This document shows positions 5,545 through 28,150 of a DNA stretch of 64,000 nt, piece after piece. Below the pieces are notes generated by a model that made no database searches, was not told where the DNA came from, and was given only the letters and a program-made list of their open reading frames with translations. Origin of the DNA: Escherichia coli (GTDB taxonomy: Bacteria; Pseudomonadota; Gammaproteobacteria; Enterobacterales; Enterobacteriaceae); the NCBI RefSeq assembly GCF_003790525.1, contig NZ_CP033635.1; one strand, given 5' to 3'. Position numbers and translations under genes: made by a program. Positions within the stretch are counted from its first letter, which is position 1. Every line of letters starts with the position of its first letter.

Positions 5545-6857
<1,313 letters not shown>

Positions 6858-8544: not shown

Positions 8545-10787
<2,243 letters not shown>

Positions 10788-10800
10788 TTCCGGTCTCCTG

Positions 10801-11556
10801 TCAGAACTTATAACCACGATGCAACGCCACAACCCCTGCCGTCAGATTGTAGTAGTCGACACTTTCGAATCCGGCATCCTGCATCATGGCTTTCAGGGTA
10901 TCCTGATCGGGATGCATACGGATGGATTCTGCCAGATAACGGTAGCTGTCGGCGTCGTTCGCGACCAGTGAGCCAATACGCGGCAGCACATGGAAGGAGT
11001 ATGCATCATAGGCTTTGCTCAGCGGCTCGATAATTGGCTTCGAGAACTCAAGCACCAGCAGGCGGCCGCCGGGTTTCAGCACGCGATACATTGAACGCAG
11101 TGCTTTATCTTTGTCGGTGACGTTACGCAGACCAAACGAAATGGTGATGCAATCAAAGGTGTTATCCGGGAACGGCAGCGCCTCAGCGTTCGCTTGAACA
11201 TACTCAACGTTGCCAATCACACCGATATTACGCAGCTTCTCGCGTCCCATTTTGAGCATGGATTCATTGATATCAGCAAGGACCACTTTGCCAGTTTCTC
11301 CGACCAGGCGGGAGAATTTCGCTGTCAGGTCGCCGGTGCCACCAGCCAGATCCAGCACGGTCTGCCCACGGCGTACGCCGCTGCAATCAATCGTGAATCG
11401 CTTCCACAAACGATGAATACCGAATGACATCAAATCATTCATGACATCGTATTTTGATGCCACGGAATGGAAAACGTGAGCGACCATATCCGCTTTTTGT
11501 TCCTTCGCGACGGTCTGAAAACCAAAGTGCGTCGTTTCTTGTGACTTATCCACCAT
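10801..11556 (-). CDS. ubiE: Demethylmenaquinone/ubiquinone C-methyltransferase UbiE
   Basis: 251 aa, SAM-methyltransferase motif [10 protein letters not shown]. Confidence 0.95.
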
Positions 11557-11650
11557 CTCAATGCCTGCTCATCAAAAAATTGTTCCAGAAGTGTAACAGA
11601 TTGGGCGTCGATGCCCTAGATTTCTACCCGGCTTAACTACCCCCAATGGG

Positions 11651-13078
11651 CTAGCGCGACTGCTGATTATATTCATCATCGCGTTGATAAGCTTCATCAT
11701 TCGGCTGCTCCGGAACCGACCGCAGTCGATACTCTTCATCCTGGCTCACCGCTTGTTCAGCCAAATCCGGATTAATCTCGCGTTTAATTTCTACCCCTAA
11801 ACCGCGAAACGCTTCTGCCTGCGCCAGCACATTTCCGCGACCTGAAGAGAGTTTTTTCATTGCCTGGCGGTAGTTATCCTGCGCTTTGTCGAGACTTTGA
11901 CCAATCGCTGACATGTCATCGACGAACAAACGCATCTTGTCGTACAGCTTGCTGGCACGATCGGCGATTTGCTGGGCGTTGCGGCTTTGATGCTCATAAC
12001 GCCACAGGTTGGCGATAGTGCGCAGCGCCACCAGCAGCGTAGTCGGGCTAACCAGCATGATATTGTTTTTCAACGCTTCGGTGATCAGCTCCGGCTGGCG
12101 GTCAAGCGCCAGTAAAAAAGCGGGTTCAACGGGAATAAACATCAGAACGTAATCCAGGGTTCGCAGCCCCGGCAGCTGTTGATAATCTTTGCGTCCCAGC
12201 AAACGGATATGGTTACGCACCGACGCGATATGTTCCTGTAGCGCGCTTTCGCGGGTGTAGTCATCTTCGGCGTTGAAATAGCGTTCATAGGCGACCAGCG
12301 TCATTTTGGCGTCGATCACCACATCTTTTCCCTGCGGCAACCGCACGATGACATCCGGCTGCATCCGCGAGCGGGCGTCATTTTCGATGCTGACCTGGGT
12401 TTCATATTCATACCCTTCACGCAGACCGGAAGCCTCCAGCACCCGCGTCAATACTACCTCGCCCCAGTTGCCCTGGGTTTTATTGTCGCCTTTCAGCGCA
12501 CGCGTCAGGTTGATCGCTTCCTGGGCCATCTGGGCGTTGAGTTGCTGGAGGTTGCGGATTTCGTGAGTCAGGGTATGACGTTCTTGGGCTTCTTTACCAA
12601 AGCTGTCCTGGACCTGACGGCGGAAACCGTCCAGTTGTTCACGTAGCGGCGACAACAGGCTGTTCAGGCTCTGACGGTTTTGCTCATCAACCCGGCGATT
12701 GCTGTGCTCAAAAATACGGTTGGCGAGGTTTTCAAACTGCTCACTGAGGCGCTGCTCGCTGTTAATCATCTGGCGAATTTTATCGTCAGCATGTTGCTGT
12801 GCAGCTTCCATCCGCGTGGTTACTTCACGCAGATCGGCCTCCAGAGAGGTGTTAATACTTTGCAGGCTGCGCACTTCGTTATTGAGTAACTCGCACTCAG
12901 CGCGCCAGTGCTCGCTTTGAGTAATTTGTTGTTTTGCCGCGCTTAACTCCGCGACCATCTCTTCACGTTCAGCTAATTGCTCGGCTTTTTGCTGCGCATG
13001 TTGATAACTGGCAAACAGCCAGCCAATTGCCACACCCACCAATGCAATAACTGCGTAAACCATGATTGAGAAATCCAC
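11651..13078 (-). CDS. rmuC: DNA recombination protein RmuC
   Basis: 475 aa, N-terminal TM segment plus long coiled-coil. Confidence 0.9.
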   Translation of the reverse strand: MDFSIMVYAVIALVGVAIGWLFASYQHAQQKAEQLAEREEMVAELSAAKQQITQSEHWRAECELLNNEVRSLQSINTSLEADLREVTTRMEAAQQHADDKIRQMINSEQRLSEQFENLANRIFEHSNRRVDEQNRQSLNSLLSPLREQLDGFRRQVQDSFGKEAQERHTLTHEIRNLQQLNAQMAQEAINLTRALKGDNKTQGNWGEVVLTRVLEASGLREGYEYETQVSIENDARSRMQPDVIVRLPQGKDVVIDAKMTLVAYERYFNAEDDYTRESALQEHIASVRNHIRLLGRKDYQQLPGLRTLDYVLMFIPVEPAFLLALDRQPELITEALKNNIMLVSPTTLLVALRTIANLWRYEHQSRNAQQIADRASKLYDKMRLFVDDMSAIGQSLDKAQDNYRQAMKKLSSGRGNVLAQAEAFRGLGVEIKREINPDLAEQAVSQDEEYRLRSVPEQPNDEAYQRDDEYNQQSR

Positions 13079-13198
13079 AACGCCTCCTGACGCAACAACT
13101 TACCCGCACAAAATAGAATTGTGCTGTACAAACGTCCAGTTTGAAAGAAGTTTCCTGCGAGGCGCTACGCAAAACGATCGTTAATTTTCATTATTTTA

Positions 13199-13232
13199 TC
13201 CCACAATATGAGATGGAGTTTATATTGTGGGA
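13199..13232. promoter_or_regulatory. Perfect 11-bp inverted repeat TCCCACAATAT-N12-ATATTGTGGGA, candidate operator in the rmuC / IclR-gene divergent region
   Basis: Palindrome read directly in sequence, ~60 bp upstream of the IclR-family start. Confidence 0.5.
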
Positions 13233-13294
13233 TATATCACCTTTTCCCCACGTCATTATGTGGAACACTTCAGCAATATCATCAGGAGAAACGT

Positions 13295-14062
13295 ATGGCA
13301 GAAACCTCTTCAACCACCGCAGGCGCACAAACGTTATTACGTGGACTGGCGGTTCTTAATGCTGTTTATAACGGCTGCCATGACCTAAAAAGTATCGGCG
13401 AGTTCACCGGCACGACCCGGAGCACAACCCATCGTTTAGTCACCGTTCTGGTGGAACAACGCTACCTGCGCCATGTCCCAACGCAGGGCTACCAACTGGG
13501 TGCCAAACTGATCGAATTCGGTGCCAGAGCACTGGAAAGCACCTCGCTGTACGAAATTGCCCAGCCCGTTTTGCAACGCCTTGCCCGTTACACCCTGGAC
13601 ACCGTGCATCTGGGGATCGTTGAAGGCGACGAAGTGCTGTATCTGGAGAAGATCAACAGTCAGCGCGGGCTGGAAATGCGCTCACGCCCAGGCCATCGCA
13701 TGCCACTGGCAATCACCGGCATCGGCAAAGCATTGATACTCAACCGAACAGAAGAAGAGTGGCGCACGCTGTTTAAGACCTGTGGTGATGAAACAAAACT
13801 GGGCGCATTTATTCAGAACATGCGTCGTTATGCCGCCAGTGGTTTTGCTTTTGATCTGGAAGAGAACGAGCCGACTATCCGTTGCGTTGCAGCGCCGGTT
13901 TACAACGCCCGGGATGAAATTGTGGCGGCTATTTCTGTCGCCAGTACCACCACGTATATGTCGCTGGCGCGTCTGGAAGAACTGGCACCTTACGTCAAAT
14001 CCTGTGCAGAAGAGATATCCGCTGAACTGGGCTGGGGTAAGCACGTCCGCAAAGATAAATAA
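13295..14062 (+). CDS. IclR-family transcriptional regulator
   Basis: N-terminal wHTH region (LRGLAVLNAV...) and C-terminal effector domain; start chosen at MAETSST (the six-frame ORF extends from 13208). Confidence 0.75.
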   Translation: MAETSSTTAGAQTLLRGLAVLNAVYNGCHDLKSIGEFTGTTRSTTHRLVTVLVEQRYLRHVPTQGYQLGAKLIEFGARALESTSLYEIAQPVLQRLARYTLDTVHLGIVEGDEVLYLEKINSQRGLEMRSRPGHRMPLAITGIGKALILNRTEEEWRTLFKTCGDETKLGAFIQNMRRYAASGFAFDLEENEPTIRCVAAPVYNARDEIVAAISVASTTTYMSLARLEELAPYVKSCAEEISAELGWGKHVRKDK

Positions 14063-14085
14063 ACCATGATTAAAGGAAACGACTA

Positions 14086-15090
14086 ATGCCGGGAGCACCC
14101 TCATTTATTGCCCTGGACTGGGGAACGTCATCGCTTCGGGCATGGCGTTTTGGCGAATCACCAAATCCACAAGAAAAACGTGAATTCCCCTGGGGGATCA
14201 TGAAATTACCCTCCCAGGCAGCAACACGTGAGGACGCTTTCCACGATACGTTTTTACGTGTCTGCGGCGACTGGCTGGCACAAACCCCATGCCCGGTACT
14301 GGCTTGCGGCATGCTCGGCAGTGCGCAAGGGTGGCAACCAGCAGCTTATTTACCTTGCCCGGTCACTCTCGAGGGTCTGGCGAAGCAGTTGACGCCAGTT
14401 ATCCACCAGCAGCAGACAATGCTGCACATCATTCCTGGCGTGATTAAAGAAGGTGAAATGCCCGAAGTGATGCGTGGCGAAGAGACACAAATCTTCGGTG
14501 CTATCTCGATGGAACCGGCCCTGCAAAACGCGATCCATCAGGGTATGCCAGTGCTGATAGGCTTACCCGGCACACATGCGAAATGGGCAGTAGTTGAAAA
14601 CAACACCATTACCGATTTCCGAACCTTTATGACGGGCGAGTTATTTGATGTTTTATCCCGCCATTCGATTCTCGGTGCCACCATGCATCCTGGAGATGAA
14701 CCGCACTGGGATGCCTTCACCCACGGGCTGACAGCAGCACAAGAGCATCATCAGACCGGATTATTATCGACGCTGTTTTCGACCCGTTCGCGCCTGCTGA
14801 CCAGTAATCTTACGTCGTCCTCGCAGGGGGATTACCTTTCCGGATTACTGATAGGCCATGAATTATGCGGTCTGGCATCCAGTTTGCTACGTGATTTACC
14901 CGCCACAACACCGATCGCCTTAATCGGTAGCGCAAATCTGAACAGCCGCTATTCACAAGCATTCAGCCACGTTTTTCCCGACAGACAGATACACGCCATT
15001 CCTAATGCCACTGAACAGGGATTATGGCGAATCGCCCACGCTGCCGGGTTACTGTCCACCAACGCCAGGGAATGTACCCATGCCATTTAA
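14086..15090 (+). CDS. 2-dehydro-3-deoxygalactonokinase-like (DgoK-family) sugar-acid kinase
   Basis: Motifs IALDWGTSSLRAW, VMRGEETQIFGA, PGTHAKW, DFRTFMTGELF, LSGLLIG resemble DgoK; RBS aggaaa upstream. Confidence 0.7.
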   Translation: MPGAPSFIALDWGTSSLRAWRFGESPNPQEKREFPWGIMKLPSQAATREDAFHDTFLRVCGDWLAQTPCPVLACGMLGSAQGWQPAAYLPCPVTLEGLAKQLTPVIHQQQTMLHIIPGVIKEGEMPEVMRGEETQIFGAISMEPALQNAIHQGMPVLIGLPGTHAKWAVVENNTITDFRTFMTGELFDVLSRHSILGATMHPGDEPHWDAFTHGLTAAQEHHQTGLLSTLFSTRSRLLTSNLTSSSQGDYLSGLLIGHELCGLASSLLRDLPATTPIALIGSANLNSRYSQAFSHVFPDRQIHAIPNATEQGLWRIAHAAGLLSTNARECTHAI

Positions 15091-15709
15091 GACGCTTTTG
15101 CAAAAAACCGGGTTAGTCGCCATTTTACGCGGCGTGAAACCGGATGAGATTGTCGCCATCGGTGAAAAACTGTACGCCGCCGGATTCCGCCTGATTGAGA
15201 TTCCTATGAACTCGCCGGAGGCGTTGCAAAGTATCAGTTTACTGCGCGACGCCCTGCCTAAGGATTGCCTGGTCGGAGCCGGAACTGTGCTTTCGGTAGA
15301 GCAGGTGGTTGCGGTTAAAGAGGCTGGGGGCCAGATTATCGTGATGCCGCATTGCGATACTGCGGTGATCCGTCGCGCCCGTGCGCTGGGTATGTATTGT
15401 GCGCCTGGCGTCGCCACGCCCACCGAAGCCTTTGCTGCCATTGAACATGGTGCTAATGCCATCAAGCTGTTCCCGGCTGAACAAATTACGCCAGAAGTTA
15501 CCAAAGCCTGGCGTGCGGTTATTCCACAATCCGTTCCGATGTTACCGGTTGGCGGTATCACACCGGAAACCATGGCGCGTTATCTGAGCCACGGCGCAAA
15601 CGGCTTTGGCCTCGGTTCTGCGCTATATCACCCCGGCATGACGCCAGAGCAAGTCTATGAAAATGCAGTACTGTTTATGAACGCATGGAACAATTTAAAT
15701 AGCAACTAA
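15080..15709 (+). CDS. 2-dehydro-3-deoxy-6-phosphogalactonate (KDPGal/KDPG-type) aldolase, DgoA-like
   Basis: LVAILRGVKPDE...IEIPMNSP...GAGTVL...CAPGVATPTEAF...GANAIKLFPA...PVGGITPE; start at MPFKTLL overlaps the kinase stop by 11 nt. Confidence 0.7.
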   Translation: MPFKTLLQKTGLVAILRGVKPDEIVAIGEKLYAAGFRLIEIPMNSPEALQSISLLRDALPKDCLVGAGTVLSVEQVVAVKEAGGQIIVMPHCDTAVIRRARALGMYCAPGVATPTEAFAAIEHGANAIKLFPAEQITPEVTKAWRAVIPQSVPMLPVGGITPETMARYLSHGANGFGLGSALYHPGMTPEQVYENAVLFMNAWNNLNSN

Positions 15710-15733
15710 CTGATAAATAAGGATATAAAAGCA

Positions 15734-16708
15734 ATGATAAAACATCTTACCTTACCGAAAAAAATGGCTGCAATGGTACTTCTTGCAGGCGCTGCCCTCA
15801 GCATTGCGCCTGTACAGGCAGCCTCCTACCCAACCAAACAGATCGAGTTAGTCGTTCCCTACGCTGCCGGAGGCGGTACGGATCTGGTTGCCCGTGCCTT
15901 TGCTGATGCCGCCAAAAACCATTTACCCGTCAGCATCGGGGTTATCAATAAACCTGGCGGAGGCGGTGCTATCGGCCTGAGTGAAATCGCCGCTGCCCGC
16001 CCTGGCGGTTACAAAATTGGTTTAGGCACGGTTGAACTGACCACCCTTCCCAGCCTCGGAATGGTGCGTTTTAAAACCAGCGATTTTAAACCCATTGCCC
16101 GTCTAAACGCGGATCCGGCTGCTATCACCGTCCGTTCTGATGCGCCGTGGAATAGCTATGAAGAATTTATGACTTACGCCAAAGCGAATCCCGGAAAAGT
16201 ACGCATTGGTAACTCAGGCACCGGAGCTATCTGGCATCTGGCGGCAGCTGCACTGGAAGACAAAACGGGTGCGAAGTTTTCTCATGTCCCGTATGACGGC
16301 GCAGCCCCTGCCATTACAGGCCTGTTAGGCGGGCATATTGAAGCGGTTTCCGTAAGCCCAGGAGAAGTTATCAACCATGTGAAAGGCGGCAAGCTGAAGA
16401 CACTGGTAGTGATGGCGGATGAGCGAATGAAAACCATGCCTGACGTCCCGACGTTAAAAGAGAAAGGCGTTGATCTCTCCATCGGCACCTGGCGCGGCCT
16501 GATTGTGTCGCAAAAAACGCCGCAGGATGTGGTGGATGTTCTGGCAAAGGCAGCAAAAGAGACGGCTGAAGAGCCTGCATTCCAGGATGCACTGCAAAAG
16601 TTGAATCTCAACTATGCATGGCTTGACGCTGCCAGCTTCCAGACCCAAATCAGCGAACAGGAAAAGTACTTTGACGAGTTGCTGACTCGCCTGGGCCTGA
16701 AAAAATAA
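15734..16708 (+). CDS. Tripartite tricarboxylate transporter (TTT) periplasmic substrate-binding protein, TctC/Bug family
   Basis: 324 aa with signal peptide (MIKHLTLPKKMAAMVLLAGAALSIAPVQA); characteristic YPTKQIELVVPYAAGGGTDL. Confidence 0.75.
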   Translation: MIKHLTLPKKMAAMVLLAGAALSIAPVQAASYPTKQIELVVPYAAGGGTDLVARAFADAAKNHLPVSIGVINKPGGGGAIGLSEIAAARPGGYKIGLGTVELTTLPSLGMVRFKTSDFKPIARLNADPAAITVRSDAPWNSYEEFMTYAKANPGKVRIGNSGTGAIWHLAAAALEDKTGAKFSHVPYDGAAPAITGLLGGHIEAVSVSPGEVINHVKGGKLKTLVVMADERMKTMPDVPTLKEKGVDLSIGTWRGLIVSQKTPQDVVDVLAKAAKETAEEPAFQDALQKLNLNYAWLDAASFQTQISEQEKYFDELLTRLGLKK

Positions 16709-16721
16709 ACCTGAGGTACGG

Positions 16722-17231
16722 TTGATGAACACAAAACAGTCTGTTGCTCAACTCGCCGTACCGCACCGCAAGCGCCTTTCATCAACGATGGTGGTGGCGC
16801 TGTTACTTTGTGTGGTTGCTGGCGCGGTGATGATTAATGCCGCTGATTTTCCAGCAACTGCCATTGAAACGGATCCCGGTGCAAGTGCCTTCCCTACCTT
16901 CTATGCCTGTGCCCTGATTGTGCTCGCTGTCTTGCTGGTGATACGCGATCTTTTGCAGGCAAAACCAGCCTCTTGCGCCAACGCACAGGAAAAACCGGCA
17001 TTCAGGAAAACGGCAACAGGAATTGCGGCAACCGCGTTTTATATTGTGACGATGAGCTACTGCGGTTATCTCATTACTACTCCTGTTTTCCTCATCGTCA
17101 TTATGACGTTGATGGGCTACAGGCGATGGGTACTCACACCGGGTATTGCGCTGCTGTTAACGGCAATCCTCTGGTTGCTGTTTGTCGAAGCGTTACAGGT
17201 GCCATTGCCTGTCGGCACATTTTTCGAATAA
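16722..17231 (+). CDS. TTT small membrane subunit, TctB-like
   Basis: 169 aa, four predicted TM helices, immediately between TctC-like and TctA-like genes. Confidence 0.65.
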   Translation: MMNTKQSVAQLAVPHRKRLSSTMVVALLLCVVAGAVMINAADFPATAIETDPGASAFPTFYACALIVLAVLLVIRDLLQAKPASCANAQEKPAFRKTATGIAATAFYIVTMSYCGYLITTPVFLIVIMTLMGYRRWVLTPGIALLLTAILWLLFVEALQVPLPVGTFFE

Positions 17232-17243
17232 CAGGGGCCAGCA

Positions 17244-18734
17244 ATGTTTGAAAGTGAACTTTTAACTCAGGGTTTTTCGACATTACTCAATAATCCTCAG
17301 GCGCTGCTGTTTGCCACTTTTGGGGTGATGCTGGGTATTGTGATTGGCGCTTTGCCTGGTCTGACAGCGACCATGGGTGTGGCGATTTTGCTGCCTTTCA
17401 CCTACGGCATGGAGCCTGTTTCTGGCTTGTTGATGATTTGCGGCGTCTTTTTTGGTGGCGTCTACGGTGGTTCTATCACCGCAATTTTGCTCAAAATTCC
17501 CGGAACGCCTGCCGCCGCAGCCACCGCTATTGATGGTTATGAGCTGACGAAACAGGGAAAAGCAGGGCTGGCATTGAGTGCCGCCACGTTCTCTTCCTTT
17601 AGTGGCGGAACGCTCAGCATTATCGTGCTGATGTTTCTCTCTCCGGTACTTGCCAGTTGGGCGCTGAAATTTAGTGCCTCGGAGTCCTTCGCCCTGGCAA
17701 CCTTCGGACTGAGCATTATTGCCAGTATTTCCGGTGAGTCACTGATTAAAGGGCTGATTGCCGGGGTTGGCGGATTGCTGATCGCAACGATAGGCCTTGA
17801 TCCAATGGGCGGTTTTCCACGGTTTACAGGTGGATTTGTGGAGCTGATGAATGTGCCATTTATCCCGGTGATGATTGGTTTATTTGCTGCTTCAGAAGCA
17901 TTCCGCTCTATGGAGCAAAACCAGCAAATTCGTCAGGGGGCGAAGGTGGCTATCGGCAGTCTGTTACTGCCCTGGCAAACACTACGCCGCATTGCATTAA
18001 CCATTTTGCGCTCATCAGGATTAGGGGTTTTTATCGGCATGATCCCCGGTGCGGGGGCGGATATTGCAGCTTTTGTTGCCTATAACGAAACTCGTCGTTT
18101 CAGTAAGACACCAGAAAACTTTGGTAAGGGTGAAATTAAAGCTGTGGCCTCCTGTGAGGCAGGCGCGAATGGCTGCACCGGTGGCGCATTGTTACCTATG
18201 CTGACGCTGGGGATCCCTGGCGATGCGGTAACCGCCATCATGCTGGGCGCGTTAACGTTACAGGGAATGCAACCAGGCCCGCTGATGTTTACCGACCACG
18301 GCGATATGGTTTATACACTGTTTGTCGGCATGATCTTCTGTTACTTCATGCTACTAGTTCTTGGACTGCTCTCTTTGAAAGTCATCGGTAATGTGGTGAA
18401 AATTCCCGGCAATATTCTCACACCGATGATCCTCGCACTTTGTGTGGTCGGGACTTATGCGTTGAACAATAGCCTGTTTGATGTTGGCATTATGCTGATT
18501 GCAGGCGTGGTGGGCTATTTCATGCAGAAAGGAGGATATCCGGCATCACCCGTAGTGCTGGCATTGATTATGGGGCCAATGGCGGAAAGTAATTTTCGCC
18601 GTGCGCTGTCGCTTTCTGGTGGGTCACTCGACTTTCTGTATACCCGACCGATAACTCTGGCATTGCTGACTCTGGCAGCCTTTACGCTACTGACGCCAAT
18701 AATCCGCAAAATAATGCGTTTACGGCGTCAATAA
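17244..18734 (+). CDS. TTT large permease subunit, TctA-like
   Basis: 496 aa polytopic membrane protein with duplicated G-rich motifs (LPGLTATMGVAILLP / IPGAGADIAAFVAYNE). Confidence 0.75.
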   Translation: MFESELLTQGFSTLLNNPQALLFATFGVMLGIVIGALPGLTATMGVAILLPFTYGMEPVSGLLMICGVFFGGVYGGSITAILLKIPGTPAAAATAIDGYELTKQGKAGLALSAATFSSFSGGTLSIIVLMFLSPVLASWALKFSASESFALATFGLSIIASISGESLIKGLIAGVGGLLIATIGLDPMGGFPRFTGGFVELMNVPFIPVMIGLFAASEAFRSMEQNQQIRQGAKVAIGSLLLPWQTLRRIALTILRSSGLGVFIGMIPGAGADIAAFVAYNETRRFSKTPENFGKGEIKAVASCEAGANGCTGGALLPMLTLGIPGDAVTAIMLGALTLQGMQPGPLMFTDHGDMVYTLFVGMIFCYFMLLVLGLLSLKVIGNVVKIPGNILTPMILALCVVGTYALNNSLFDVGIMLIAGVVGYFMQKGGYPASPVVLALIMGPMAESNFRRALSLSGGSLDFLYTRPITLALLTLAAFTLLTPIIRKIMRLRRQ

Positions 18735-18741
18735 CTGATAT

Positions 18742-18769
18742 CGCTCCCCGAAGTTGGGGAGCGTTTTTT
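18742..18769 (+). terminator. Rho-independent terminator after the tct-like operon (overlaps the 3' end of udp)
   Basis: CGCTCCCC-GAAGTT-GGGGAGCG hairpin followed by T6. Confidence 0.65.
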
Positions 18770-19532
18770 ATTTCAGCAGACGACGCGCCGCTTCCACCAC
18801 GATTTTCACCGCATGGCTTTCGGTTTGTTTCATCGTCTCAGCATTCGGGATCTCTTGCTGGGTGCGGTTAACGATAACCCCCGCTACCATACCGGCACGC
18901 AGGCCCTGACTTGCACACATGGTCAGCAGGGTTGCAGATTCCATTTCATAGTTCATTACGCCCATCGCCTGCCACTCTTCCATAGAACCTTTAAAGTGAC
19001 GAACTACGCGACCAGAGTAAGTATCGTAACGTTCCTGACCCGGGTAGAAGGTATCAGAAGAAGCCGTCACACCAACGTGAGTGGTGGCACCAATTGACTT
19101 CGCCGCTTCAACCAGCGCAGTCGTACATTCGAAATCAGCGACAGCCGGGAATTCCAGCGGTGCGAAGTGCAGGCTCGCACCATCCAGACGAACAGACGCC
19201 GTGGTAACCAGGACATCGCCAACATTAATATGCGGCTGAATAGCGCCTGTTGTGCCGATACGCAGGAAGGTGCGAATGCCCAGCTGTGCCAGCTCTTCAA
19301 CAGCAATAGAGGTAGACGGGCCGCCGATACCGGTAGAGCAGACGATAACAGGTTTACCATCCAGCTCTGCACGCCAGGTGGTGAATTCGCGATGAGATGC
19401 CAGCTTAACCGGCTTATCCATCAGCGCGGCGATCTTTTCCACACGATCCGGGTCGCCAGGGACGATGGCAAGCGTAGCCCCTTGTAAATCGTTTTTAGTG
19501 AGGCCGAGATGAAAAACATCAGACTTGGACAT
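18768..19532 (-). CDS. udp: Uridine phosphorylase
   Basis: [35 protein letters not shown]..., full-length Udp. Confidence 0.95.
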
Positions 19533-20859: not shown

Positions 20860-21528
20860 ATGACGCAATCCATTTTTCAGGCTCAACCCTTTGAATTACC
20901 TTTTGATCCGCGCACAACTGCACTGGTCATGATCGACATGCAGCGTGACTTTGTCGAAGCAGGGGGCTTCGGTGAGGCACTGGGCAATGATGTTTCACTG
21001 GTACGCACGGCTATCGCACCATGTACAGAGGTGCTGGCAGCCGCACGTCAAAAAGGAATTATGGTTATTCATACTCGTGAAGGCCATCGTGCAGACTTAA
21101 GCGACTGCCCGCCAGCCAAACTGACGCGCGGCGGAAAAACCTTTATTGGTGAACCAGGACCGATGGGACGCATTCTGGTCAGAGGTGAAGCAGGTCATGA
21201 CATCATTCCTGAACTGTACCCGGTGGCAGGCGAACCGGTGATTGATAAGCCTGGCAAAGGCGCGTTTTATCAAACCGACTTACATCTGATTTTGCAAAAC
21301 CACGGTATCAAGACGCTGATAGTTTGTGGTGTTACAACCGAAGTTTGCGTAACCACCACCGTGCGCGAAGCAAATGATCGTGGCTATGAATGCATTATCC
21401 CGGAAGATTGTGTCGGCTCCTATTTCCCGGAATTCCAGAAATACGCCCTCGAGATGATCAAAGCACAAGGTGCCATTTTCGGTTGGGTTACTGATTCCAA
21501 AGCCATTATTGCAGGCCTGGAAGGCTAA
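20860..21528 (+). CDS. Isochorismatase-family cysteine hydrolase (amidohydrolase of RutB / biuret-hydrolase / N-carbamoylsarcosine amidase type)
   Basis: 222 aa; ALVMIDMQRDF (Asp), conserved Lys, LIVCGVTTEVCV (nucleophile Cys); RBS aggag. Confidence 0.75.
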   Translation: MTQSIFQAQPFELPFDPRTTALVMIDMQRDFVEAGGFGEALGNDVSLVRTAIAPCTEVLAAARQKGIMVIHTREGHRADLSDCPPAKLTRGGKTFIGEPGPMGRILVRGEAGHDIIPELYPVAGEPVIDKPGKGAFYQTDLHLILQNHGIKTLIVCGVTTEVCVTTTVREANDRGYECIIPEDCVGSYFPEFQKYALEMIKAQGAIFGWVTDSKAIIAGLEG

Positions 21529-21533
21529 CACCG

Positions 21534-22394
21534 ATGGTACAGGTTACGCTTTGCGCATCGTCGTTGGGATATCTTTTCCCGCAGAATGAAACGCAAGATT
21601 TACGTCTACATAGCGCTTTTAAACATGCGGTAAATCTGTATTCAGACGCGGGAACATTCATCACTCTGTTGTGTGCGCAAACGTATCTGAATCTCCCTGA
21701 TGCAGCCAGAGTCTGGCTACCTGAATGTTGGGACTGGCGAAGAGAGATTGCCCATTCAGATCCCATTCAGTTAACCCCAGGCTTACTGCGGACACCTCGA
21801 TTTTGTGTGGCGCTCGAAAACGCAACGCTCTGGCAGTCGCCATTTGTGGGGGGAATGCTGACACTTGAGGCATTCCCTTTGGTTTTCCAGCACTACCCAA
21901 CGATGGCATCGCAACGGCTTTTATTTTGTCTGGAACATAACGTTCAAAGCACATTGCACCTGCCGGATAGTCTCACGCACCAGGGATTAGCGATTATGGA
22001 GCATCCAGATGCGCTGGAACGCCAGGTGCCACAACTGATCGGCTTTGGTAAAGGCTTAACGCCCGATGGAGATGACTATTTGTTGGGCTATCTGGCAGCA
22101 CTCTGGTTATGGCAACTCCCTGCACCACTTGCCGATCATCAATACCGGTTGCAGCAGGTAATTGATCAACATGCGCACAACACCACGGATATCAGTCGTC
22201 ATTATCTGGAGCGTGCGCTTCAGGGACATTTTTCAGAACCGATTTGCCAGTTACTCGCACAACTGGTTGGGAGTGCATCGGCAATGACAATCGCATCCTG
22301 TGCAGAACAGGTCATGCAATTTGGCGCAACGTCAGGAGTAGATTGCCTTGCAGGAATGCTGCATGGCTTTCGAACCCTGAACACCATAAATTGA
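21534..22394 (+). CDS. DUF2877-like protein (YlbF/AllH-like component of the FdrA module)
   Basis: 286 aa; assignment from family resemblance and position beside FdrA-like and DUF1116-like genes; the least secure assignment in the cluster. Confidence 0.5.
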   Translation: MVQVTLCASSLGYLFPQNETQDLRLHSAFKHAVNLYSDAGTFITLLCAQTYLNLPDAARVWLPECWDWRREIAHSDPIQLTPGLLRTPRFCVALENATLWQSPFVGGMLTLEAFPLVFQHYPTMASQRLLFCLEHNVQSTLHLPDSLTHQGLAIMEHPDALERQVPQLIGFGKGLTPDGDDYLLGYLAALWLWQLPAPLADHQYRLQQVIDQHAHNTTDISRHYLERALQGHFSEPICQLLAQLVGSASAMTIASCAEQVMQFGATSGVDCLAGMLHGFRTLNTIN

Positions 22395-22488
22395 TTTCAA
22401 CCTTTTCTCCCGTAGCCCGTTTATGGGGCTACACGGGGATGCTTTGCCCGAATTTTGCTATCGGGCGGAATGAAACAGGCGTAACAGC

Positions 22489-24048
22489 ATGAAAGTTAAA
22501 TATAAAGTTTTCAGTAATCTTTATCAGGACTCAGTTTCTCTGATGCAGATTTCCGCGCAAATCAGCAAGTTGCCCGGTATTCAACAGGCCTCGGTCGTCA
22601 TGGGAACACCCAATAATCTCGAGCAATTGAGCGATGCGGGTCTGGGTAACGAAATCAACGCCAGTCCCAATGATTTAGTGATTGCAGTCATGGGTGAAGA
22701 AGATATTTGCAATGAAGCACTGGTACTGGCCCAGCAACGTCTGACCAGCAAACCCGATGATGAAACGGATAGTGGCATTAAAACACCGGAAAAGGTCAGC
22801 CTGGAAATGGCACTGGAAGCCGAGCCCGAAGCCAACCTGGCACTCATTTCTGTACCGGGAGACTACGCCGCCGCCGAAGCAATTAAAGCGTTAAACCTCG
22901 GAATGAACGTGATGATGTTCAGCGATAACGTCAGTATCGTGCAGGAAAAATCCATCAAAACGCTTGCCCGAGAACGTCAGCGCATCGTAATGGGACCTGA
23001 CTGTGGAACCGCCATTGTTAACGGCATTCCGTTAGGCTTCGCTAATGTGGTGAAACGCGGAGCAATTGGTGTTATTGGCGCGTCAGGCACCGGGCTACAG
23101 GAAGTGACTTGCCGAATCGACCAGCTCGGAGCGGGTATTTCTCAGGCGTTGGGAACAGGCGGACATGATCTCAGTGAAGAGATTGGTGGAATATCGATGC
23201 TCTTCGCTTTAGATGCGCTGGCGCAAGACGATGAAACTCGCGTGATTGTGCTTATTTCAAAACCGCCTTCACCGATCGTTGCCCGGACTATTCTGGAGCG
23301 TGCCGAGGCTTGTGGAAAACCCGTGGTGGTGAATTTCCTCGGTGCGAATCCGCATGATCTGGCACGTCCCAATATCACCGCGGCCACCACACTTGCCAGC
23401 GCCGCAAATATCGCCGTGGCGTTACTGAATGATCAACCACTTCCGACTATCGAGACCGAAATTTCCTGCGACGATCTCACAATGTTACAAAACGCCTGCC
23501 AGCGCCTGCCAGCCCATCGCCAGGCGATACGCGGTGTTTTCGCCGGAGGAACCTTCTGCTACGAAGCGCAACTTATCTGCCAACAAAAGGGATTCAGCGC
23601 AGCCTCCAATACGCCAGTTGCGGGTAATCGTGCTCTGGCAAATATCTGGCAAAGCGAAGATCACACGTTGATCGATATGGGCGACGATGATTTCACCCGT
23701 GGCAAACCGCATCCAATGATCGACCCGACTCTGCGCAATCAACGTCTGCTCAACGAACTCAACGACTCACACACTGCCGTCGTGTTATTCGACCTGGTAC
23801 TTGGTTATGGCGCTTCCACGACGCCTGCCAGCGAATTACTGGACCAACTTTCACACATCGACATGAATAACGCACCGTTGCTGATTGCGCACGTTTGCGG
23901 AACGGAAGCTGATCCGCAAATACGCAGTCAGCAGATAAGCGCACTACAAAATGCAGGGGTCATCATCGCCAGCAGCAATGCACAGGCGGCGTTATGGGCC
24001 AGCACCGTTGCACAGACTCAGTTGCAGAAAAAGGGGCTAAACGCATGA
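22489..24048 (+). CDS. FdrA-like protein (succinyl-CoA synthetase alpha-like / acyl-CoA synthetase-like fold)
   Basis: 519 aa; MMFSDNV, VMGPDCGT, GVIGASGTG, HPMIDPTLRNQ motifs typical of FdrA/AllF family. Confidence 0.75.
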   Translation: MKVKYKVFSNLYQDSVSLMQISAQISKLPGIQQASVVMGTPNNLEQLSDAGLGNEINASPNDLVIAVMGEEDICNEALVLAQQRLTSKPDDETDSGIKTPEKVSLEMALEAEPEANLALISVPGDYAAAEAIKALNLGMNVMMFSDNVSIVQEKSIKTLARERQRIVMGPDCGTAIVNGIPLGFANVVKRGAIGVIGASGTGLQEVTCRIDQLGAGISQALGTGGHDLSEEIGGISMLFALDALAQDDETRVIVLISKPPSPIVARTILERAEACGKPVVVNFLGANPHDLARPNITAATTLASAANIAVALLNDQPLPTIETEISCDDLTMLQNACQRLPAHRQAIRGVFAGGTFCYEAQLICQQKGFSAASNTPVAGNRALANIWQSEDHTLIDMGDDDFTRGKPHPMIDPTLRNQRLLNELNDSHTAVVLFDLVLGYGASTTPASELLDQLSHIDMNNAPLLIAHVCGTEADPQIRSQQISALQNAGVIIASSNAQAALWASTVAQTQLQKKGLNA

Positions 24049-25469
24049 ATACCTTATTTAATCAGCCTTTGAAGGTTGTGAACGCGGGACTACACAGTTT
24101 TGCTGACAATATTCAACATGCCGGGGGAAGCGCAATTGCACTCAACTGGCAGCCACCAGCACAAGGCGATATTGACGCTGGATTGGATCTGGCATCGTTG
24201 CTACGTCATCCCCTGGTAGAAAATGCCAACCAAATCGCCATGACACGTTATCTCGAAGCACAGCCCGTGCTGGTGGATGTCATGCTCGCTAAAGAGGCCA
24301 TTCCAGAAATGGCTGAACAAAAACGTATTTTGCACTCTGGCCCGCCGATTGCCTGGGAAGAGATGTGTGGTCCGGTAAAAGGGGCGATTATTGGTGCCAT
24401 GCTGTACGAAGGTTGGGCCACCAGCCAGCAAGACGCTGAAAACCAAATAAACGCAGGCGAAATCGACCTTGCCCCTTGTCATCATTATCACGCGGTTGGC
24501 CCAATGGCAGGCATCATCAGCCCGTCGATGCCGTTATGGGTGGTAGAAAACAAAACCAACGGCCACCGTACTTTTAGCAATTTCAATGAAGGTCTGGGTA
24601 AGGTTCTCCGTTTTGGCGCCAATAACGATGAAGTTCTCAATCGTCTGGCCTGGATGCGCGATGAACTGGCGCCGGCAATGAAAGCAGCAATCGCACAACA
24701 CGGCGAGCTGGAACTCAAGCCATTAATGGCGCAGGCGCTGCATATGGGGGATGAAGTTCATAACCGCAATGCTGCCGCTACCGGTTTGCTGATTAAGCGC
24801 CTGCTCCCGGCATTGCTGGCCTGCTCTCTTCCACAGGAACATATCCAGCGCGTCGTGGCATTTATCACCGGTAACGATCACTTCTTCCTCAATCTTTCGA
24901 TGGCCGCCTGTAAAGCAATGATGGATGCCGCCGCCAATGTACCGTTCAGTTCAATGGTTACGGTGATGGCGCGTAACGGGGTGAATTTTGGTATTCGGCT
25001 TTCCGGTACTGGCGATCGCTGGTTCCAGGCTCCTGCCAATGCCGTTGAAGGTCTGTTCTTCCCCGGATTTGGCGTCGACGATGCCGCTGCTGACCTGGGT
25101 GATAGCGCAATTACTGAAACCGCAGGTGTGGGTGGCTTCGCGATGGCGTCGTCTCCGGCGATCGTCAAATTTGTGGGAGGCACCCCTGCCGATGCCACCA
25201 ATAACAGCCGTCGGATGCAAGCCGTCACCCTCGGCGGTAACCCCGCATTTACACTTCCAGCCCTCAATTTTGCCCCCACCGCAGCAGGGATTGATGCGCG
25301 TAAAGTGACCGATCGCGGCATTTTACCGGTCATCAATACGGGTATCGCCCACAAACAAGCGGGGGTCGGGCAAATTGGTGCCGGGATCACCACTGCGCCG
25401 ATGGCCTGTTTTGTCGCCGCTGTACGTGCACTGGCGGAGATCGTCGCAAAGGAGAACCATCATGGTTAA
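24045..25469 (+). CDS. DUF1116-like protein (YlbE/AllG-like)
   Basis: ~474 aa; start ATG overlaps the FdrA-like stop (ATGA), so translationally coupled. Confidence 0.6.
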   Translation: MNTLFNQPLKVVNAGLHSFADNIQHAGGSAIALNWQPPAQGDIDAGLDLASLLRHPLVENANQIAMTRYLEAQPVLVDVMLAKEAIPEMAEQKRILHSGPPIAWEEMCGPVKGAIIGAMLYEGWATSQQDAENQINAGEIDLAPCHHYHAVGPMAGIISPSMPLWVVENKTNGHRTFSNFNEGLGKVLRFGANNDEVLNRLAWMRDELAPAMKAAIAQHGELELKPLMAQALHMGDEVHNRNAAATGLLIKRLLPALLACSLPQEHIQRVVAFITGNDHFFLNLSMAACKAMMDAAANVPFSSMVTVMARNGVNFGIRLSGTGDRWFQAPANAVEGLFFPGFGVDDAAADLGDSAITETAGVGGFAMASSPAIVKFVGGTPADATNNSRRMQAVTLGGNPAFTLPALNFAPTAAGIDARKVTDRGILPVINTGIAHKQAGVGQIGAGITTAPMACFVAAVRALAEIVAKENHHG

Positions 25470-26418
25470 GCCACTGGCTGTCGTCGCGGTTGGCGGCAAT
25501 GCGCTCATTCAGGACGAGCAACGCAATAGTATTCCCGATCAATATGTTGCAGTGATGGAAAGCGTGCAGCATATCGTTGATATGGTTGAAGCCGGATGGG
25601 ACCTGGTGCTAACCCACGGTAATGGCCCGCAGGTGGGCTTTATTCTGCGCCGCTCTGAACTCGCCAGTAACGAAGTTTCTCCGGTTCCACTTGATTACGC
25701 CGTGGGTGATACACAAGGTGCAATTGGCTACATGTTCCAGAAAGCACTGCATAACGAATTGGCTCGCCGTGGCATAAACAAACCGGTAATTGCCCTGGTG
25801 ACACAAACGCGAGTCAGCCCACATGACGATGCTTTCGCCAGCCCCAGTAAACCAATTGGCGCGTTTCTCGATGAAGCAACGGCCCAACAACGCCAACAAC
25901 AACTCGGCTGGACGCTGATGGAGGACGCCGGGCGTGGTTGGCGGCGTACAGTTCCCTCTCCTGCCCCACTGGAAGTTATTGAGCACGACACCATCGCTCA
26001 CCTGGTGCGCCAGGGATATCTGGTTATTGCCTGCGGCGGCGGCGGTATTCCGGTGGTGCGAGACGGACAACAACTGAAAGGTGTAGAAGCCGTGATCGAT
26101 AAAGATCTGGCCTCCGCGCTGCTCGCCAGTCAGTTAGGCGCAGATCTGCTGGTGATCCCCACCGGTGTAGAAAAAGTGGCGATTAACTTTGGTACACCAC
26201 AACAACAGTGGCTCGACGCTATCAGCGTTGCCGAAGCGCAAACGCTGTTGCGGGAAGGTCAGTTTGGTGTCGGCAGTATGCAACCCAAAGTGGAAGCCAT
26301 TGTTGATTTCATCAATGCCAGCCAGCAACAAGGCAAACAGGCCAGCGGCCTGATTACTTCACCGCAAACCATAAAAGCAGCCCTGGCGCATCAGAGCGGT
26401 ACATGGATAACCCTTTAA
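25462..26418 (+). CDS. Carbamate kinase
   Basis: MVKPLAVVAVGGNALIQ... amino-acid-kinase fold, THGNGPQVG, IACGGGGIPVV; RBS aggag; overlaps the upstream gene by 8 nt. Confidence 0.8.
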   Translation: MVKPLAVVAVGGNALIQDEQRNSIPDQYVAVMESVQHIVDMVEAGWDLVLTHGNGPQVGFILRRSELASNEVSPVPLDYAVGDTQGAIGYMFQKALHNELARRGINKPVIALVTQTRVSPHDDAFASPSKPIGAFLDEATAQQRQQQLGWTLMEDAGRGWRRTVPSPAPLEVIEHDTIAHLVRQGYLVIACGGGGIPVVRDGQQLKGVEAVIDKDLASALLASQLGADLLVIPTGVEKVAINFGTPQQQWLDAISVAEAQTLLREGQFGVGSMQPKVEAIVDFINASQQQGKQASGLITSPQTIKAALAHQSGTWITL

Positions 26419-26434
26419 TTCTCTGGAGAACACA

Positions 26435-26824
26435 ATGACTACAACGCTTTTAGCCGTTAACGGAACGCTGATGCGCGGCCTGGAACTCAACCCAAATATG
26501 CAAAAAGCGGGCGGTATTTTTGTCCGTGAAGACCGAACTGACGCCCATTACCGGTTGTGGAGTATTAATGATCGCCATCCGGGAATGATTCGCGTGAATG
26601 AAGGAGGAACACACGTCGACGTAGAAATTTGGCAATTACCGCTGGCCAGTTTTGCCGCTCTGTTAATGAGCGAACCCGCTGGGCTGGCAATTGGCAAAAT
26701 CAAACTTGCCGATGGTAGCGAAGTGCTGGGCGTACTGGCAGAAAACTGGCTGACCGAAGGCCAACGGGAAATTACAGAACTGGGTAGCTGGCGCAAATAC
26801 ACCGGGCATTTTCATACTGTGTAA
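26435..26824 (+). CDS. Gamma-glutamylcyclotransferase-like (AIG2/GGCT fold) protein
   Basis: 129 aa; N-terminal AVNGTLMRG resembles the YGSLM-type GGCT motif. Confidence 0.55.
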   Translation: MTTTLLAVNGTLMRGLELNPNMQKAGGIFVREDRTDAHYRLWSINDRHPGMIRVNEGGTHVDVEIWQLPLASFAALLMSEPAGLAIGKIKLADGSEVLGVLAENWLTEGQREITELGSWRKYTGHFHTV

Positions 26825-26849
26825 CGCGCATTTATAAAGGGAACATACT

Positions 26850-28073
26850 ATGCGTAAAAAAGAAGAGAATCTGAATACGGCATCAGGATTGCGTATTGCC
26901 ATGATTTTGCTGGGTATTGCCGTCACACCTGTGCTGTTGTCATCCTCAAGCCTCGGCAATCAACTTTCCAGCGGCAGTTTAATTAGCGTCGTATTGTTAG
27001 GCGGCGTCATTCTGACCTTACTTTCAGCCATCACCATTAGCGTGGGAGAAAAAGCCCGCCTACCAACGTATGGCATTGTGAAATATTCGTTTGGCGAAAA
27101 AGGGGCCATCGCCATTAACATTTTGATGGCGATAAGTCTGTTCGGCTGGATTGCCGTTACCGCCAATATGTTTGGTCATTCGGTACATGACTTACTGGCT
27201 CAACATGGACTGGAAGTTCCACTGGCACTGTTAGTGGCGGCTGGCTGTGTCATTTTTGTCGCCTCTACGGCATTTGGCTTTGCCGTTCTGGGAAAAATTG
27301 CCCAGGTTGCCGTGCCGGTTATCGCGCTGGTGCTGTGTTACATCCTCTATGTGGCAACCCATACCGAAGTGGCAGTACCAGCGGCGATTGTGGAGATGAA
27401 TACAGGTGTCGCCGTTTCCACCGTTGTTGGCACCATTATTGTGCTGGTTGCCACACTGCCTGATTTCGGTAGTTTTGTGCATAACCGCAAACATGCGCTG
27501 ATTGCCGCAGGCGTGACGTTTCTGGTTGCCTACCCTCTGCTCTACTGGGCGGGTGCAACGCCGAGCGCCATTAGTGGTCAGGGATCTTTACTGGGTGCGA
27601 TGGCGGTATTCGGTGCGGTTCTGCCTGCGGCGCTGTTGTTGATTTTCGCCTGCGTCACCGGTAACGCGGGCAATATGTTCCAGGGCACGCTGGTGGTTTC
27701 CACACTGCTTACCCGCTTTCCCAAATGGCAGATTACCGTGGCGCTGGGTATCCTTTCCGCCATCGTAGGCAGTATGGATATTATGGCGTGGTTTATTCCG
27801 TTTCTGCTGTTCCTGGGTATCGCCACGCCACCCGTTGCCGGAATTTATATCGCTGACTTTTTCTTTTATCGCCGTAATGGCTATCAAGAGTCAGTGTTAG
27901 CCCAGGAGTCACAGATTAAAGTGCTGACATTCGCAGCATGGATCATAGGCGCAGCGGTTGGCTTTATGACCGTAAAAGGCTTATTCACCCTGACGACGAT
28001 CCCTTCGGTAGACTCGATTCTGGTGGCATGTATCGCTTATGCGATTCTCAGTCGGGCAAGTCAACACCGCTAA
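26850..28073 (+). CDS. NCS1-family nucleobase/cytosine-type permease (CodB-like)
   Basis: 407 aa, ~12 TM helices, overall similarity to purine-cytosine permeases. Confidence 0.7.
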   Translation: MRKKEENLNTASGLRIAMILLGIAVTPVLLSSSSLGNQLSSGSLISVVLLGGVILTLLSAITISVGEKARLPTYGIVKYSFGEKGAIAINILMAISLFGWIAVTANMFGHSVHDLLAQHGLEVPLALLVAAGCVIFVASTAFGFAVLGKIAQVAVPVIALVLCYILYVATHTEVAVPAAIVEMNTGVAVSTVVGTIIVLVATLPDFGSFVHNRKHALIAAGVTFLVAYPLLYWAGATPSAISGQGSLLGAMAVFGAVLPAALLLIFACVTGNAGNMFQGTLVVSTLLTRFPKWQITVALGILSAIVGSMDIMAWFIPFLLFLGIATPPVAGIYIADFFFYRRNGYQESVLAQESQIKVLTFAAWIIGAAVGFMTVKGLFTLTTIPSVDSILVACIAYAILSRASQHR

Positions 28074-28150
28074 TTCCTGGGTATACTCAGGCAATGATTA
28101 CGGCTGAATCTGGAGAGATTCAGCCACTTTACCACTGACCAGGAAGCCTT

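Follow-up and report, generated by a model that had tools for sequence, protein, structure and literature searches.

Introduction

In the dgoRKADT operon of Escherichia coli, the kinase DgoK and the aldolase DgoA, with pyruvate and glyceraldehyde-3-phosphate as the expected end products, are accompanied by a dehydratase (DgoD), a transporter of the major facilitator superfamily (MFS; DgoT) and a GntR-type regulator (DgoR). Here we analyse a six-gene block that lies between rmuC and udp in a 64,000-nucleotide stretch of E. coli DNA (contig NZ_CP033635.1; hereafter the window), which matches E. coli SMS-3-5 (NC_010498.1) with 100% identity over its whole length. The block is a variant of the known sugar-acid operons and combines a kinase and an aldolase of the dgo type with a tripartite tricarboxylate transporter (TTT), which belongs to a rare class of importers. 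We propose, at a probability of roughly 0.45, that it is an IclR-controlled operon scavenging a preformed 2-keto-3-deoxy-hexonate. Comparison with other bacteria suggests that it is the trimmed core of a wider module, which usually holds a reductase of the A1-R type and often an SMP-30-like protein.

The block has the kinase family (Pfam PF05035) and the NCBIfam aldolase subfamily in common with dgoRKADT; the two genes are adjacent and overlap in the same order, and the same end products are expected. However, it has no DgoD, a TTT instead of the MFS transporter DgoT and an IclR-family instead of a GntR-type regulator, and its kinase and aldolase are 34% and 46% identical to the DgoK and DgoA of the same strain. 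With the DgoD, DgoT and DgoR features all missing, it stands outside the canonical dgo operon class. Import of a preformed 2-keto-3-deoxy-hexonate under an IclR-family repressor, followed by phosphorylation and cleavage, is also the scheme of the enterobacterial KdgR/KdgT/KdgK/Eda system, but there the transporter family, the kinase family (PfkB as against DGOK) and the aldolase subfamily differ, and the regulator of the block scores 130 bits against the KdgR model (cutoff 275). The Salmonella citrate transporter TctCBA has the same three-component architecture; unlike it, the block has no adjacent TctDE two-component genes and a sugar-acid rather than a tricarboxylate context.

Other described systems resemble parts of the locus. 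The TTT of the alginate locus of Vibrio sp. C42 (PDB 25HK; PMC13390454) also feeds a kinase-plus-aldolase route and shares binding residues with the E. coli transporter, whereas the alginate lyases, KdgF, DehR, PfkB-type KdgK and Eda of that locus are all absent from the block. In Sphingomonas sp. A1, the reductases A1-R and A1-R' (PDB 3AFM, 4TKL) serve a route from the 4-deoxy-5-hexosulose uronate of alginate (DEH) to 2-keto-3-deoxy-gluconate (KDG) and its 6-phosphate (KDPG). Close homologs of these reductases flank many of the orthologous cassettes; the E. coli block, in contrast, has the gene-order core of the A1-R-linked cassette and no adjacent reductase, and the cassette enzymes are of the DgoK/DgoA and not of the KdgK/Eda type. 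The GalR (IclR)-dgoK-TTT cluster of Salinivirga fredricksonii HL-109 (PMC5507952) unites an IclR regulator, a DgoK-type kinase and a TTT. It is likened to the block by this gene combination only, and its D-galactonate uptake is a prediction.

Gene content and operon structure

Six open reading frames (ORFs), all on the plus strand, occupy positions 13295-18734 of the window between rmuC (11651-13078, minus strand) and udp (18768-19532, minus strand). All six proteins are already named by homology in RefSeq. The features of the locus are:

13295-14062, plus strand: IclR-family regulator, first gene of the operon (RefSeq coding sequence WP_000852398.1)
14086-15090, plus strand: sugar-acid kinase of the DGOK (2-keto-3-deoxy-galactonokinase) family (Pfam PF05035)
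15080-15709, plus strand: class I pyruvate aldolase of the DgoA subfamily, that of the 2-keto-3-deoxy-6-phosphogalactonate (KDPGal) aldolases (NF006600)
15734-16708, plus strand: periplasmic substrate-binding protein of the TctC/Bug family (solved-structure homologs; signal peptide)
16725-17231, plus strand: TctB small membrane subunit (Pfam PF07331; RefSeq coding sequence)
17244-18734, plus strand: TctA large permease subunit (Pfam PF01970)
18742-18763, plus strand: intrinsic terminator (9-bp stem with 7 GC pairs, then a T-run)
13197..13234, no strand: candidate IclR operator, an inverted repeat upstream of the start codon of the regulator

The intergenic gaps are, in gene order, 23, -11, 24, 16 and 12 nt. 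Because of this tight spacing, the 11-nt overlap of kinase and aldolase and the single terminator, the six genes constitute one operon with the regulator first. The hairpin at 18742-18763 is the sole strong terminator of the block; it directly adjoins the stop codon of udp, a convergent gene that it probably serves as well. No DgoD-like dehydratase was found among the ORFs of the block or its flanks. The original prediction, made from the sequence of the window, had described just such a same-strand six-gene cluster, with a DgoK-like kinase and a DgoA-like aldolase, a TTT in place of the MFS transporter and no dehydratase. Each of these points was borne out by the profile matches and comparisons given below.

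Kinase and aldolase

The kinase matches the DGOK profile PF05035 over its full length (E = 6e-89), and its PDB homologs are the solved DgoK structures 3r1x and 3t69 (E about 1e-37). It is 38-55% identical to cassette orthologs, with a span of 32-55% in the locus table described below. The cassette kinases of other genera are 34-35% identical to DgoK and 38-57% identical among themselves, and no NCBIfam equivalog was found for their clade. On these identities the cassette kinases appear to form a separate DGOK subfamily, and the block kinase would be a member of the DGOK family and no ortholog of DgoK.

The aldolase scores 320 bits against the DgoA/KDPGal subfamily model NF006600 (cutoff 207) and 136 bits, below the cutoff of 156, against the Eda model TIGR01182. 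In alignments, for which an approximate E. coli Eda sequence served as the outgroup, the Schiff-base Lys and the catalytic Glu are kept, and the stereo-determinant sites are of the KDPGal type (LVAIL in strand beta1; PVGG with V157 in beta7). KDPGal-type (4R) determinants are present in every proteobacterial cassette aldolase compared. In aldolases of this kind, stereoselectivity was shown experimentally to be controlled by the beta1 strand and V154/T161, and exchange of these determinants inverts it only in part (PMC4915726). The enzyme families and the residues that determine stereoselectivity make 2-keto-3-deoxy-galactonate (KDGal) the most likely intermediate.

The names DgoK and DgoA could nevertheless mislead, and the substrate could be another acid: a longer 3-deoxy-ulosonic acid of 4R configuration such as 3-deoxy-manno-octulosonate (KDO) or 3-deoxy-arabino-heptulosonate (DAH), a 3-deoxy-aldonate, or a di- or tricarboxylate. 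KDO and DAH have the 4R configuration of KDGal, and both the low identity of the kinase to DgoK and its clade's want of an equivalog would fit such a substrate. Most characterised TTT binding proteins, moreover, take di- or tricarboxylates (PMC13390454). However, the two unrelated kinase families found in orthologous loci (DGOK and PfkB, see below) both indicate 2-keto-3-deoxy-hexonates, the aldolase scores well over the DgoA-subfamily cutoff, and neither an arabinose-5-phosphate isomerase nor a shikimate-pathway context accompanies the loci, one aroD neighbour excepted. We therefore consider another acid very unlikely. A glucarate-like route, with 5-keto-4-deoxy-glucarate aldolase, tartronate semialdehyde reductase and glycerate kinase, was likewise rejected as a best guess, since both kinase families are 2-keto-3-deoxy-hexonate types.

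The cassette in other bacteria

Related loci were collected by a TctC-alignment scan of one genome per species, which gave 79 loci, followed by tblastn and inspection of Pfam-annotated contigs. Six-frame ORF calls are crude in high-GC loci and include antisense artefacts (clusters c11-c13 and c17), and the locus tables rest on tblastn and precomputed Pfam. Where TctC is at least 57% identical to that of E. coli, the genes run in the same order, IclR-kinase-aldolase-TctCBA, in at least 20 loci from Alpha-, Beta- and Gammaproteobacteria. These include Rhodoferax, Azospirillum, Skermanella, Azohydromonas, Aquincola, Caldimonas, Mangrovicoccus, Brenneria, Phytobacter, Klebsiella and Lelliottia, together with an Acetobacteraceae isolate and a Moraxellaceae metagenome-assembled genome; Spirabiliibacterium and Photobacterium have the cassette genes in a rearranged order. 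Across loci L002-L018, L034 and L082-L084, identities to the E. coli proteins are 57-84% for TctC, 62-90% for TctA, 41-67% for the aldolase and 32-55% for the kinase.

No DgoD homolog was found within 10 kb on either side in at least 20 orthologous loci, and clustering of all neighbouring ORFs of the cassette loci gave no recurrent dehydratase family. The lack of a dehydratase is shared by at least 20 orthologous loci from three classes of Proteobacteria and is a property of the cassette family, not an accident of one strain. A DgoD does occur in Vibrio sonorensis (L039, about 8900-15600; IclR-TctCBA-DgoD-DgoK-DgoA), whose TctC is only 41% identical to that of E. coli. Both the conserved absence and the distance of this DgoD-bearing locus favour import of a compound that has reached the level of a 2-keto-3-deoxy-hexonate or is one redox step away from it. 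The tctA and dgoD genes of L039 each seem to be split into two ORFs and may be pseudogenes or assembly errors.

In Firmicutes, loci with a TctC 50-67% identical to that of E. coli have, beside TctCBA, a PfkB kinase, an aldolase and in some cases a 2-hydroxyacid dehydrogenase. The top NCBIfam matches of the PfkB kinase are bifunctional KDG/KDGal kinases, consistent with a non-orthologous replacement that kept the same chemistry. Since DGOK was swapped for PfkB, the kinase step at the KDG/KDGal level would be conserved, and the conserved core of the family would comprise uptake, phosphorylation of a 2-keto-3-deoxy-hexonate and aldol cleavage.

The same data bear on a different reading, in which the TTT is a high-affinity importer of D-galactonate or another aldonate that is dehydrated by the core DgoD or an unlinked dehydratase, the block providing a second kinase and aldolase. 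SMS-3-5 has a complete dgoRKADT operon about 160 kb from the block, with an intact-looking dgoD, and Leyn et al. predicted D-galactonate as the substrate of the Salinivirga IclR-dgoK-TTT cluster (PMC5507952). The KDPGal-type determinants of the block aldolase agree with this reading, and the SMP-30 lactonase-like gene found in 10 of 20 relatives (see below) fits a route from sugar through lactone to aldonate. Yet none of the at least 20 orthologous loci has a linked dehydratase, although the more distant L039 does, and compact operons such as L009 (IclR-SDR-TctCBA-kinase-aldolase, SDR being a short-chain dehydrogenase/reductase) look self-contained with neither lactonase nor dehydratase. Kinase and aldolase of the block would, in addition, duplicate DgoK and DgoA, and the linked oxidoreductases are of aldehyde-reductase types, not sugar 1-dehydrogenases of known specificity. 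Import of an aldonate is thus an unlikely explanation in our view. The original prediction that the substrate is already a 2-keto-3-deoxy acid stands in part: the conserved absence of a dehydratase favours such an acid or a compound one redox step off, and D-galactonate via dgoD remains its competitor.

Linked reductases and other partner genes

A 258-residue short-chain reductase adjoins the cassette in 15 of the 20 proteobacterial loci outside E. coli, oriented divergently from iclR at some and in line within the operon at others; its presence in most relatives had escaped the original prediction. The linked reductase matches the DEH reductase A1-R of Sphingomonas sp. A1 over its full length (E = 1e-95) and wild-type A1-R' with E = 1e-86, and the linked reductases are 53-67% identical to the query SDR in the tblastn locus table. 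Conversely, A1-R finds its nearest relatives in the database (65-83% identity) in taxa that bear the cassette, several of them matched by species (Skermanella, Azospirillum agricola, Caldimonas), and a Moraxellaceae example again combines an A1-R-type reductase with the cassette. The single closest relative, P0122 (83%), stands alone on its contig. An exact-sequence look-up for the genomic context of A1-R' matched no record.

Reductases of this type convert the alginate product DEH to KDG (PMC6011931, PMC8778563). A1-R' prefers anionic, erythro-configured substrates (KDG 100%, D-gluconate 79%, D-galactonate 0.2%; PMC6011931), and in Sphingomonas sp. A1 the A1-R genes lie far from the alginate cluster (PMC8778563). 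The reductase link appears to tie the cassette family to the breakdown products of unsaturated uronates. It would also support C6-kinase chemistry, because this enzyme type makes the primary alcohol that a C6 kinase needs (PMC6011931, PMC8778563).

A gene of the SMP-30/gluconolactonase family (PF08450) directly follows tctA or lies nearby in 10 of the 20 loci (carriers include L002, L003, L004, L007, L014, L034 and L082, in the last at 13184-14098). The PDB relatives of its product are regucalcins only (E about 1e-22), and it has no NCBIfam match. In Klebsiella oxytoca (L083) and Lelliottia (L084), an iron-dependent alcohol/aldehyde dehydrogenase takes the place of the A1-R-type reductase. It forms a divergent upstream pair with a second DGOK kinase, 23-27% identical to the other kinases (L083 5079-7258; L084 likewise), and a second IclR gene follows tctA in both (L083 13239-14003; L084 likewise). 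The E. coli, Phytobacter and Brenneria loci have none of these partners, that is, no A1-R-type reductase (for E. coli, none within 10 kb on either side of the block in the window), no SMP-30-like protein and no dehydrogenase/second DGOK pair. The Rhodoferax locus L082 has a type I 3-dehydroquinate dehydratase (aroD) gene at 5639-6427, beside its A1-R-like reductase. DEH hydrates are said to resemble quinate (PMC8778563), and the adjacency may be a coincidence.

The TctCBA transporter

TctA matches PF01970 with E = 1.2e-151, and the protein (WP_000463026.1) is identical in C41(DE3); TctB matches PF07331 with E = 2.5e-21. The TctC protein carries a signal peptide with a cleavage site judged by eye as AQA|AS, and PF03401 is recorded on P0001, the representative of a cluster 99% identical to it. 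Its closest solved structures are 4x9t (E = 3e-99), deposited as an uncharacterised protein and presumably ligand-free, then 25hk, the Vibrio TTT-C (E = 7e-64), and BugD. By homology, TctC, TctB and TctA make up a complete, bona fide TTT.

In Vibrio sp. C42, the TTT-C protein (25HK) binds unsaturated products of alginate breakdown, and growth on alginate requires its transporter (PMC13390454). TTT-C is the nearest functionally characterised binding protein to the E. coli TctC. In our alignment, TctC shares Gly48, Thr49, Asp50, Pro128, Gly210, Thr252 and Arg254 with residues important in TTT-C (residues from PMC13390454); the equivalent pairs (TTT-C/E. coli) include Gly24/G48, Gly183/G210, Thr225/T252 and Arg227/R254. 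The canonical second carboxylate-binding loop, GNSGTGAIWHL, is retained in E. coli TctC and shortened in TTT-C, which suggests a smaller pocket in the E. coli protein.

These observations raise the possibility that the ligand is a 4-deoxy-5-hexosulose uronate itself, either DEH or the isomer derived from pectin and glycosaminoglycans (DKI), or an unsaturated monouronate, and that E. coli relies on an unlinked reductase. The linkage of an A1-R-type reductase in 15 of 20 loci and the cassette taxa among the nearest relatives of A1-R speak for it. So does the match of G48, G210, T252 and R254, by our own mapping, to TTT-C residues that are essential for or contribute to ligand binding (PMC13390454), and the position of the A1-R genes outside the Sphingomonas alginate cluster (PMC8778563), given which the cassette module may be their usual setting. 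Candidate pocket residues are also almost invariant among 17 TctC orthologs, from loci with and without the reductase. Against it stand the canonical second carboxylate-binding loop of E. coli TctC, missing in Vibrio TTT-C, and the lack of a linked reductase in E. coli, Phytobacter and Brenneria. A further count against it is that E. coli engineered to use alginate needed an added DEH reductase. Both natural isomers, finally, would give 4S products (see below), which clash with a KDPGal-type aldolase. Taken together, uptake of the uronate itself seems to us improbable.

Proposed function

The reading that we prefer is scavenging of a preformed 2-keto-3-deoxy-hexonate. The sequences and their comparison show the genes, their families, the operon structure, the conserved lack of a dehydratase and the reductase linked in relatives; ligand, step order, repression and inducer are inferred. 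Two precedents agree with this reading: the nearest functionally characterised relative of TctC binds saccharides derived from uronates (PMC13390454), and the KDG regulator KdgR is among the top matches of the block regulator. Periplasmic TctC would capture the acid and TctBA would carry it into the cell. The DGOK-family kinase would phosphorylate it at C6, and the aldolase would cleave the resulting 6-phosphate into pyruvate plus glyceraldehyde-3-phosphate. At the palindrome 5' of its own gene, the IclR protein would keep the operon repressed as long as neither the acid nor its phosphate is bound. Where the full module is present, reduction of a 4-deoxy-5-hexosulose uronate by the aldehyde reductase would supply the C6 hydroxyl. 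The substrate may be KDGal, KDG, or D-galactonate by way of the core DgoD.

Several points weigh against this proposal. We know of no documented natural pool of free KDGal in the gut. The core dgoD of the same genome supplies a dehydratase in trans, so absence of the gene from the operon is no proof that the activity is dispensable, and the similar Salinivirga cluster was itself assigned to D-galactonate uptake. At 34% identity to DgoK, the kinase may prefer either KDGal or KDG. If the near-invariant TctC pocket means a common ligand and this were an aldehyde (DEH or DKI), a reductase not linked to the block would be required in E. coli. The stereochemistry is also in apparent conflict: A1-R-type reductases make 4S KDG (PMC6011931), whereas the cassette aldolases have 4R, KDPGal-type determinants. 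By our own Fischer-projection reasoning, DEH would yield KDG (4S,5R) and DKI would yield L-KDGal (4S,5S). One of three things must hold: the motif-based call fails for this aldolase clade, the reductase has another substrate, or it acts in a side branch. We considered and rejected direct conversion by the linked reductase of pectin- or glycosaminoglycan-derived DKI into the kinase substrate, as neither 4S product fits a 4R aldolase.

A broader proposal, which we regard as doubtful though worth stating, is that a widespread, undescribed module (TTT, A1-R-type reductase, DGOK kinase and DgoA-type aldolase) imports monomeric breakdown products of polyuronides and that the E. coli operon is its form without the reductase. 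It is in this module that genes for the 'alginate' DEH reductases would usually reside, and TctC would rank as the first binding protein of bacteria for monomers of the DEH, DKI, KDG or KDGal type. Cassette-positive E. coli (lineages B2, F, B and C) would then cross-feed on 2-keto-3-deoxy acids released by gut microbes that degrade pectin, alginate and glycosaminoglycans.

Regulator and candidate operator

KdgR, a member of the IclR family, senses KDG. The top NCBIfam matches of the block regulator are BhcR (143 bits) and KdgR, both far under the respective cutoffs, and because of these scores we class it as an IclR-family member without an assigned effector. A repeat search found a perfect 13-nt inverted repeat, TATCCCACAATAT-N12-ATATTGTGGGATA (arms at 13197-13209 and 13222-13234), some 60 nt 5' of the iclR start. 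Half-sites of the TCCCAC(A/T)AT type also occur 5' of the orthologous iclR genes in L011, L006, L083, L084, L009, L014 and L005, and we regard the repeat as a candidate operator for the IclR protein. The longest ORF of the regulator opens at 13208, inside the palindrome; this start is unlikely because of that overlap, and the RefSeq start at 13295 is preceded by a good Shine-Dalgarno sequence (AGGAG).

Distribution and age of the locus

The block is present at full length, with 97.8-100% identity, in 1452-1454 of 5,426 complete E. coli genomes; this 27% is no population frequency, as complete genomes over-represent clinical lineages. In the remaining complete genomes, K-12 and O157 included, the match is confined to the initial 96 nt of the intergenic region. 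In K-12 the rmuC-udp spacer is 140 nt long, and the block replaces about 45 nt of it, including the udp terminator hairpin, in place of which it brings its own terminator. The view that the locus is accessory in E. coli and missing from K-12 at this position was thus correct. A restriction to pathogenic lineages, which had been implied, does not hold: both C41(DE3), of the BL21 lineage, and ATCC 8739 have an intact block at this site.

Nor does the locus look like the accessory insertion that had been supposed. Its GC content equals that of the flanks, and Phytobacter massiliensis (L011, 4295-14860) has the same six-gene cassette between ubiE and udp, with 75-96% identity to E. coli in the flanking proteins and 55-90% in those of the cassette; no rmuC match was found at the Phytobacter cassette position. 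This synteny, the native GC content and the absence of mobility genes and flanking repeats suggest an old locus that was lost from many E. coli lineages, and on the same grounds recent insertion was rejected.

In the literature searched we found no published experimental study of the E. coli locus, and papers on the BL21 metabolic model, B-versus-K-12 multi-omics and the BL21 transcriptome do not mention it. Between ysgA and metE (window positions 20860-29047), about 2 kb from the first, is another strain-variable block, which is full-length in 1553 of the 5,426 complete genomes, the others matching its metE edge only. It encodes a cysteine hydrolase (isochorismatase-like), DUF2877, FdrA, DUF1116, the carbamate kinase ArcC, an allophanate-hydrolase-related protein, a cytosine permease and a LysR regulator, and looks like a nitrogen-heterocycle or carbamate catabolic cluster.

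Significance

The comparison ties the A1-R/A1-R' DEH reductases to a conserved transporter-kinase-aldolase module that is apparently undescribed in the literature searched. The presence of an intact operon in the BL21 lineage and ATCC 8739 and its absence from K-12 allow simple gain- and loss-of-function testing. If the scavenging proposal is correct, it would give the first substrate for a TTT in E. coli and add a way into the kinase/aldolase branch of sugar-acid catabolism that needs no dehydratase, and it would explain a strain-variable metabolic trait in about a quarter of the complete genomes of the species.

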